Below are positions 45,398 through 46,419 of a stretch of DNA of 64,000 bases, piece by piece. The notes below the pieces were generated by a model. The model saw only the letters and a list, made by a program, of their open reading frames with translations, was not told the origin of the DNA and ran no database searches. The DNA is from Escherichia coli. Lineage in GTDB: Bacteria; Pseudomonadota; Gammaproteobacteria; Enterobacterales; Enterobacteriaceae. The translations under genes were made by a program, and so were the position numbers. Where the stretch lies: NCBI RefSeq assembly GCF_002854065.1, contig NZ_CP024147.1. One strand, given 5' to 3'. The stretch's first letter is position 1. Each line of letters starts with the position of its first letter.

Positions 45398-46419
45398 TAG
45401 CTCGCCACCAATTTTTGATAGTCGGCGTCACTGAGTGAACAATGCCAGAACAGTTGGGCGTAATGCTGCATGTCACTTTTAAACTGGCGATTGATGGCGG
45501 GATCCAGCCAGGCGTGAAGTCTGCGTAATCCCAGAAGACGGTTGATTCCCGGTGGGGCATCCAGCCAGCCAAAGGGCAAGCCACTTAAAAATAAGATGCG
45601 TTGTTCCGCAACGGCTTTCACGCCATGCCAGAGAGGATCACGACGAATAAAATCTGCAGTAACGGCCTCCTGAACCAGAATAATATCCGGCTGCCAGCGC
45701 AGGAGATTTTCCATGGAAACCTGTGTCAGGCCGTGGCGATCGGCTATTTGCGCGACGTTGTGCAAACCTAATAATTCCGCCGCCTCGGTATGCAACGAAC
45801 CCTTTAAGCCCGTTTCCAGCCCTCGAGGACCGCGCGCAGCATAAAAGCGGAGGTTAGCGGCGGGTGAGGCGGCGAATGCCTGAGCTTCACCAACGAAGCG
45901 GCTGGCGAGATTGGCTTGTTCTGCGGCGCGATGCTCTTCGCCTAACGTTTTGCCAAGCGTTGTTAACTGTTCTGCTGATTGCGCCAGTTTCCCGTTAAGC
46001 AATAACCAGGGTATTTGTGTCTGTTCGCTAACCTGCCGTGCCTGGGAGATCCAGGTTTCATCCGTATTGCCGCAATCAACGACCAAATCGGGATGTAACG
46101 CCATAAGCCCTTCCAGCGAGAGTGTGCTGGCGCGCCCGGCGAGTCGTCCCAGCCTGGGTAACTGGCGAATGTGCTCTGGCAATGGAATTAATGCCTGACG
46201 GGCAAAATCAAAAGAGGAAAAACCGACCATTTTTTCTGGCGCGACAGCCAGCAATAGCAAATCGGCGGGCGCACCTGCGCTGACGATGCGTGTAATGTTT
46301 TGGGCTTCGGGAAGCGTCAGTGAGGCCCAGAATTTGACTGATTGTGCAAAAGAAGGCAGATGATGCAGGAACAACGTCGACGCAAGAATCTGTGTAAACC
46401 TCCGTCTGGTTAGTGACAT
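45397..46419 (-). CDS. periplasmic substrate-binding protein (class III, FecB/BtuF/MolA-like) with twin-arginine-like signal
   Basis: 340-aa ORF; N-terminus MSLTRRRFTQILASTLFLHHLPSFAQS contains T-R-R-R-F; first gene of the island operon. Confidence 0.8.
   Translation of the reverse strand: MSLTRRRFTQILASTLFLHHLPSFAQSVKFWASLTLPEAQNITRIVSAGAPADLLLLAVAPEKMVGFSSFDFARQALIPLPEHIRQLPRLGRLAGRASTLSLEGLMALHPDLVVDCGNTDETWISQARQVSEQTQIPWLLLNGKLAQSAEQLTTLGKTLGEEHRAAEQANLASRFVGEAQAFAASPAANLRFYAARGPRGLETGLKGSLHTEAAELLGLHNVAQIADRHGLTQVSMENLLRWQPDIILVQEAVTADFIRRDPLWHGVKAVAEQRILFLSGLPFGWLDAPPGINRLLGLRRLHAWLDPAINRQFKSDMQHYAQLFWHCSLSDADYQKLVAS

Follow-up and report, generated by a model that had tools for sequence, protein, structure and literature searches.

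The binding-protein gene

This account concerns a stretch of 64,000 nucleotides (64 kb) of Escherichia coli DNA (assembly GCF_002854065.1, contig NZ_CP024147.1), called the window throughout, and an island within it that carries a six-gene operon. The first gene of the operon encodes a periplasmic substrate-binding protein whose N-terminus resembles a signal for export by twin-arginine translocation (Tat). The features at the start of this gene are listed below.

45397..46419, minus strand: substrate-binding protein gene, class III / Peripla_BP_2, MolA-like, 340 residues, identified by a PF01497 match
46345..46419, minus strand: predicted signal peptide, codons 1-25 (MSLTRRRFTQILASTLFLHHLPSFA), with a signal peptidase I cut predicted after S-F-A25 from the [ASG]-x-A kept by orthologues and from the AlphaFold2 model
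46390..46410, minus strand: twin-arginine motif T4-R5-R6-R7-F8-T9-Q10 (ACC AGA CGG AGG TTT ACA CAG), based on the TatP expression, the flank score and conservation
46428..46431, minus strand: Shine-Dalgarno sequence AGGA, 8 nt upstream of the ATG of the binding protein, read from the sequence

Of 5426 complete E. coli genomes, 2148 (~40%) carry the gene. The encoded N-terminus is MSLTRRRFTQILASTLFLHHLPSFAQSVKF, in which the predicted signal is followed by QS. The first-pass annotation had noted an N-terminal peptide with T-R-R-R-F at 46330-46419. This is correct; these positions are exactly codons 1-30, and the RefSeq start is identical in the 100% identical E. coli chromosome EC1515 (WP_001536890.1, 'iron ABC transporter substrate-binding protein'). 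A wrong start codon was considered and rejected because the RefSeq start agrees and a Shine-Dalgarno sequence is present. None of the alternative in-frame starts of the E. coli open reading frame (ORF) eliminates the twin-arginine (RR) motif. Two JGI gene calls, P0053 and P0055, begin at Met7 and are confined to Citrobacter, in which the 'x' position of the motif is Met.

The protein belongs to class III (cluster A) of Peripla_BP_2, as it combines a PF01497 match (59.5 bits, cut-off 27.5) with a two-lobe fold and a long helix. The AlphaFold2 model has a mean predicted local distance difference test (pLDDT) of 89.7, and the long helix spans residues 162-183. The folded class III domain begins at about residue 29, and the signal lies outside it. 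A low-confidence helix is modelled at residues 5-20, with pLDDT of 59-67 across residues 1-30 and below 50 at residues 20-24. The top structural match is 4pag, an uncharacterised protein (template modelling score 0.77-0.81), followed by Haemophilus influenzae MolA, 3psa (Foldseek E 5e-16), and every one of the top matches is a binding protein of class III. Among characterised proteins MolA is the closest in structure, although the two proteins are only ~20% identical. No cofactor-binding family was matched in a profile scan of the protein.

The twin-arginine motif and its conservation

Compared with the Tat consensus S/T-R-R-x-F-L-K, the binding protein keeps T, RR and F, and its L and K are replaced by T and Q. 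T-R-R-R-F-T-Q satisfies the TatP default expression, RR.[FGAVML][LITMVF]. The conserved pair is R5-R6, and R7 occupies the variable 'x' position, where orthologues have M, T, L or V. A position matrix covering the residues on either side of RR was compiled from 59 Tat signals, 25 from E. coli (PMC7549933) and 34 validated in Pseudomonas aeruginosa (PMC6085387). With this matrix the R5-R6 register scores +5.63 bits and the R6-R7 register -9.03. The former value lies at the 27th percentile of the 59 Tat signals in a leave-one-out comparison (mean 7.0, standard deviation (sd) 5.1), and it exceeds the scores of all 43 other RR dipeptides found in those ORFs of the window that have 150 residues or more. 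The mean for all 44 dipeptides, the query included, is -11.4 (sd 6.0), and the match of the motif exceeds chance. As a separate observation, the codons for R5-R7, AGA-CGG-AGG (46399-46407, minus strand), are three consecutive rare E. coli arginine codons at positions 5-7.

The orthologue set covers 50-97% identity and 87 distinct complete N-termini, which are not phylogenetically independent. RR is present at the same position in 84 of these; KK takes its place in one, and the other two are gene calls that begin at an internal Met, so that the pair is kept in 84/85 and is replaced by RK or KR in none. Column entropy is 0.09 bit at both arginines compared with 0.9-3.0 bit at the other signal positions, and the hydrophobic (h-) region has diverged freely while the RR pair has not changed. 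Both [TS] at -1 and [FL] at +3 are likewise conserved, and the family consensus is [TS]-R-R-x-[FL]-[ALIT]-[QG]. Some orthologue motifs come nearer the full Tat consensus than that of E. coli, for example SRRTFLQ and NRRSFLK. Orthologues of the RR type that are 40-71% identical and lie in the same operon are found in Citrobacter, Klebsiella indica, Serratia fonticola, Shewanella fodinae and two further genomes. The sole cluster in which K-K replaces R-R is P0109, a 50% identical orthologue cluster of 27 member sequences (MDIKKRLLLKAL...), and this could be a twin-lysine variant that arose naturally or could mark a change to the general secretory (Sec) pathway.

The cleavage site is predicted after S23-F24-A25 because an [ASG]-x-A motif is conserved there, 18-20 residues beyond the first arginine in the orthologues. 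S-F-A is present in the C-terminal (c-) region of the E. coli signal, and a signal length of 25 residues is likely rather than 27.

The wider family was sampled as representatives of clusters at 50% identity. Tat-like N-termini occur in 21/30 representatives that are at least 38% identical to the query, in 6/30 at 33-37% and in 2/44 at 32% or below; the rest have Sec signals or are lipoproteins. Two of the relatives with Sec signals, P0145 and P0133, lie on contigs of 1.3 and 2.0 kb, and a TonB-receptor gene is found beside one and a gene for a phosphonate-type binding protein beside the other.

Hydrophobicity of the signal

The h-region was defined as the uncharged stretch of the signal, a definition that reproduces the published values for SufI (PMC5539426). 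Benchmark hydrophobicities obtained with the method of that paper are 1.36 for SufI, 2.31 for OmpA and 2.49 for DsbA. The h-region of the binding protein, FTQILASTLFLHHLPSFA, has a grand average of hydropathy (GRAVY) of 0.96, and its best 10-residue window has a value of 1.48. The corresponding means for 26 Tat signals are 1.23 and 1.84. For 12 Sec signals the means are 1.82 and 2.54 and the minima 1.14 and 1.81. The h-region of the binding protein is therefore less hydrophobic than that of every one of these 12 and within the Tat range. A similar relationship is seen inside the family, in which the h-regions of RR-type members are less hydrophobic than those of non-RR members (2.05 and 2.66, Mann-Whitney p = 5e-8). 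Such a link between RR and low hydrophobicity would be expected if the two classes took different export routes.

Precedents for Tat-exported binding proteins

Tat export of binding proteins is not without precedent. FhuD, which belongs to the same Pfam family (Peripla_BP_2), is on the standard lists of E. coli and Salmonella Tat substrates. Like the island's binding protein it works behind a TonB-dependent receptor and feeds an ABC importer of the FecCD type, and in its signal, MSGLPLISRRRLLTAMALSPLLWQMNTAQA, an S-R-R-R-L-L motif is combined with an h-region of weak hydrophobicity (GRAVY 0.78). However, the two are distant in sequence, and the NCBIfam model for FhuD matches 24/105 family members, and those weakly. 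FhuD also differs in being part of an iron system with another ligand and other regulation, and its signal has 30 residues instead of 25.

For three P. aeruginosa binding proteins, FepB (PA4159), PA4858 and PA2328, the Tat signals have been validated in E. coli with an AmiA amidase reporter, and none has a predicted cofactor (PMC6085387). FepB is the closest of these in form, with a signal of 25 residues, MPTRRRSALPLLALALSLFATLAAA, that contains T-R-R-R. All three belong to other subfamilies and have other ligands, and their signals are experimentally validated, whereas that of the query is known from sequence. The h-region of FepB is also far more hydrophobic than that of the query (GRAVY 2.01 vs 0.96).

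The signal itself is most like that of E. coli SufI (FtsP), a model Tat substrate. The SufI signal is 27 residues long (MSLSRRQFIQASGIALCAGAVPLKASA, MSLSRRQFIQ...) and the query signal 25, and both begin M-S-L-[ST]-R-R-x-F-x-Q, with Q replacing the K of the consensus. The passenger proteins are unrelated, however, and SufI has a lysine in the c-region and an h-region rich in Ala and Gly. The Tat model TIGR01409 gives 24.8 bits for SufI and no match for the query.

Export route

The first 25 residues probably form a functional Tat signal peptide on a binding protein that has no cofactor. The MolA-like protein would fold in the cytoplasm and be recognized by TatBC through T-R5-R6-x-F. TatABC would then carry it over the inner membrane, most likely in a ligand-free state, and signal peptidase I would free it by cutting after S-F-A25. 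In the periplasm the protein would receive substrate from the island's TonB-dependent receptor and hand it to the MolBC-like ABC importer. Why would such a protein need Tat? The reason is most likely that the protein folds fast or stably in the cytoplasm and that its h-region is too weak for Sec, which is also the case proposed for FhuD and P. aeruginosa FepB; cofactor insertion is not the proposed reason. The Tat-like signal suggested by the first-pass annotation is supported by the motif, the low hydrophobicity of the h-region, the conservation of RR at 50-97% identity and the link between the two features within the family, but it is unproven. The N-terminus could instead be an ordinary Sec signal with an n-region that is arginine-rich by chance, in which case the protein would be exported unfolded via SecYEG and the resemblance to Tat signals would have no function. 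A number of observations weigh against Tat export or in favour of this alternative. Neither TIGR01409 nor PF10518 matched the query or its 40-residue N-terminus at E <= 10, and at E <= 1 TIGR01409 matched 2/105 family members. The non-match is of limited weight and not decisive because TIGR01409 passes only 8/18 reference Tat signals; it passes 5/8 from E. coli, missing FhuD, AmiC and YcbK, and 3/10 of the validated short signals from P. aeruginosa, with FepB and PA4858 among those missed. The binding protein is also absent from the 25 Tat substrates found in a TatP 1.0 survey of PCN033, a strain of extraintestinal pathogenic E. coli (ExPEC) (PMC7549933). PCN033 carries the island, and the 40-residue N-terminus of its binding protein is identical. 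The published list may have been filtered or curated, because only classical substrates are on it. The length of 25 residues is short for a Tat signal and is one typical of Sec; in the E. coli allele T9 and Q10 stand where the Tat consensus has L and K, and 7% of Gram-negative Sec signals also satisfy the TatP expression when it is used alone. The E. coli c-region has no basic residue, with H-H where Citrobacter has R-H; a basic residue in this region is the usual feature by which Sec is avoided. Furthermore, plain Sec signals are found in some of the relatives of 38-45% identity, and therefore the fold does not need Tat. Against an ordinary Sec signal, Sec n-regions tolerate exchanges of K and R, yet none of the orthologues has RK or KR, and the flanking [TS] and [FL] are conserved as well. 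The h-region lies below all 12 compared Sec signals in hydrophobicity, and the link between RR and low hydrophobicity within the family is what a partitioning between Tat and Sec predicts. On balance, an ordinary Sec signal is considered unlikely.

Two other explanations keep a role for Tat. The signal could be promiscuous, with Tat and Sec sharing export and the balance set by folding speed and the strength of expression. Tat signals of raised hydrophobicity are known to leak into Sec (PMC5539426), and the best 8-residue window of the signal, ILASTLFL, has a value of 2.38 and approaches those of Sec signals. The E. coli allele also lacks the late basic residue (K or R in the h/c-region) that is seen in 45/83 orthologue signals. 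The overall hydrophobicity is low, however, and dual export, which sequence alone cannot separate from export by Tat only, is regarded as improbable. It could also be that Tat is needed because a ligand or cofactor is loaded in the cytoplasm before export, such as a compound made by ModD and the methyltransferase. The two cytoplasmic enzymes, ModD and an S-adenosylmethionine (SAM) methyltransferase, are co-transcribed with the binding protein throughout the orthologous operons seen, except that ModD is missing in two of them. Many Tat substrates carry cofactors. The standard class III fold and the lack of a match to any cofactor-binding family in the profile scan do not favour loading, and neither do the relatives that have Sec or lipoprotein signals. 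The ModE-type operator described below implies that the protein would be made when molybdate is scarce, and therefore loaded export would waste metal and oppose uptake. This explanation is very improbable. The first-pass annotation had argued that binding proteins are usually exported by Sec, so that Tat export would imply folding or loading in the cytoplasm. The argument is weak in view of FhuD, the P. aeruginosa proteins and the relatives with Sec signals. Cytoplasmic loading is not implied, because Tat-targeted class III binding proteins without predicted cofactors are known, and it is unlikely for this protein.

If Tat export of the binding protein is correct, one protein of the accessory genome would join a list of E. 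coli Tat substrates that is largely based on the K-12 core, and the curated Tat models would be overlooking the signals of an entire binding-protein subfamily. The uptake system would be lost in Tat mutants of ExPEC and O157 strains, and Tat inhibitors would affect it too. In the papers searched, neither the N-terminal sequence of the binding protein nor those of orthologues were found. The Tat question is in itself of modest stakes, and the context of the operon matters more.

The operon and its relation to molybdate importers

The order of genes in the operon is binding protein, FecCD permease, ABC ATPase, SAM methyltransferase, ModD and TonB-dependent receptor. The five genes that follow the binding protein are as follows.

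44417..45397, minus strand: FecCD-family ABC permease, MolB-like (PF01032; HI1471 MolB E 9e-65 vs FhuB 7e-49)
43662..44420, minus strand: ABC ATPase, MolC-like, 'fepC' in the older literature (PF00005; HI1470 MolC E 1.3e-35; RefSeq start)
42840..43652, minus strand: class I SAM-dependent methyltransferase 'yc73', without a signal peptide (profile matches, RefSeq)
41989..42843, minus strand: ModD, quinolinate-phosphoribosyltransferase (QPRTase)-like, without a signal peptide (TIGR01334 504 bits, cut-off 178.85; QPRTase structures E 3e-19)
39993..41963, minus strand: TonB-dependent outer-membrane receptor 'prrA', with a Sec-type signal, MRLKKRYLCTALSLAFTQQAVAA (plug and barrel domains; RefSeq start)

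The longest ORF for the ATPase (43662-44558, minus strand) has a GTG start that lies 46 codons upstream of the one in RefSeq (44420), and it overlaps the permease gene. In PCN033 the permease gene (L007 16473-17453) carries an internal stop and is annotated as a pseudogene, and therefore the transport system may be inactive in that strain.

The island is the known 'prrA-modD-yc73-fepC' cluster, O157 OI#55 / S-loop#83, which has been described as possible iron uptake. It has previously been labelled as iron-uptake or virulence-associated. A foreign base composition was considered for the island and ruled out, as its G+C content of 52.6% is like that of the flanks.

In the PDB ranking, from which alone the kinship is taken, the closest solved relatives of the permease and the ATPase are H. 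influenzae MolB and MolC rather than FhuB, BtuC or HmuU, and for the ATPase MolC ranks first among the single-domain matches. MolBC-A (HI1470-HI1472) is a low-affinity type II ABC importer of molybdate and tungstate. The E. coli transcription unit differs from it in adding a TonB-dependent receptor, ModD and the methyltransferase.

Probable regulation by molybdenum rather than iron

The most interesting result of the analysis is a side finding, a ModE-type operator in front of the binding-protein gene.

46444..46467, no strand assigned: ModE-type operator CGCTATATA-TTTACA-TATATATCG, 25-48 bp upstream of the start codon of the binding protein, identified by a consensus match

The E. coli ModE consensus is ATCGNTATATA-N6-TATATANCGAT (PMC545781). 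The operator has no mismatches to the core CGNTATATA-N6-TATATANCG (16/16) and agrees with the full consensus at 18/20 positions. It is the only match in the 64 kb of the window at up to 2 mismatches, where 0.01 would be expected, and shuffled sequence never came within 5 mismatches of the consensus. As a control, the modA operator of K-12 was found with 2 mismatches, 20-43 bp upstream of modA. A ModE-type site also lies 15-53 bp upstream of the binding-protein gene in 6/6 orthologous loci, with 0-3 mismatches (chance 0.05 per 17 kb), and in 3/6 a second site precedes the receptor gene. The positions of these sites within each locus are given below.

L004: ModE-type sites at 7959-7982 and 12579-12602
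L005: ModE-type site at 7925-7948
L008: ModE-type site at 7951-7974
L009 (Klebsiella indica): ModE-type site at 7943-7966
L010 (Serratia fonticola): ModE-type sites at 7957-7980 and 12491-12514
L011: ModE-type sites at 7963-7986 and 11752-11775

No Fur box above chance was found in the promoter region, 46420-46762; the best site matches at 13/19 positions, which is equalled or bettered by 21% of AT-rich shuffles. An Rfam scan of 39000-49000 at E <= 1 gave nothing relevant, with neither a molybdenum cofactor nor a cobalamin riboswitch. A sigma-70 scan placed no promoter over the operator. By eye, TTGACA is found 17 nt upstream of the operator, but there is no good -10 element. The repression of H. 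influenzae molB by molybdate (PMC4031551) fits the operator found here.

On sequence evidence, the island is probably molybdenum-regulated rather than an iron-uptake system as annotated, because the ModE operator is conserved, the transporter is related to MolBC and no Fur box stands above chance. A fuller account, offered tentatively as a real possibility, is that the island is not an iron system but a ModE-repressed uptake pathway that is induced by molybdenum or tungsten starvation. Its parts would be the TonB-dependent receptor, a MolA-like binding protein exported by Tat, an importer of the MolBC type, and ModD with the methyltransferase. The island may import a chelated form of the metal.

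If the operator is functional, a cluster long counted as part of iron acquisition by pathogenic E. coli is molybdenum-responsive, and its distribution and its role in infection would be read differently. The island would also become a workable model for TonB-dependent uptake of molybdenum or tungsten and for the function of ModD. If the molybdenum reading as a whole is true, E. coli would have an energised outer-membrane route for molybdenum, and a further link would exist between Tat and molybdenum metabolism.

Variation among the orthologous operons

The gene content of the operon varies among organisms. The operons of L005 and L011 (from 8001 onward; Shewanella included) lack ModD and retain the methyltransferase, the RR-type signal and the ModE sites; therefore ModD is dispensable for the conserved core. 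In the E. coli window the receptor gene is followed by ymgE, and a MOSC gene is absent there. Instead, a gene for a MOSC-domain (YiiM-like) protein comes directly after the receptor gene in Klebsiella indica (L009 14466-15110) and Serratia fonticola (L010 14556-15197), and its position beside the receptor is another link to molybdenum cofactor biology.

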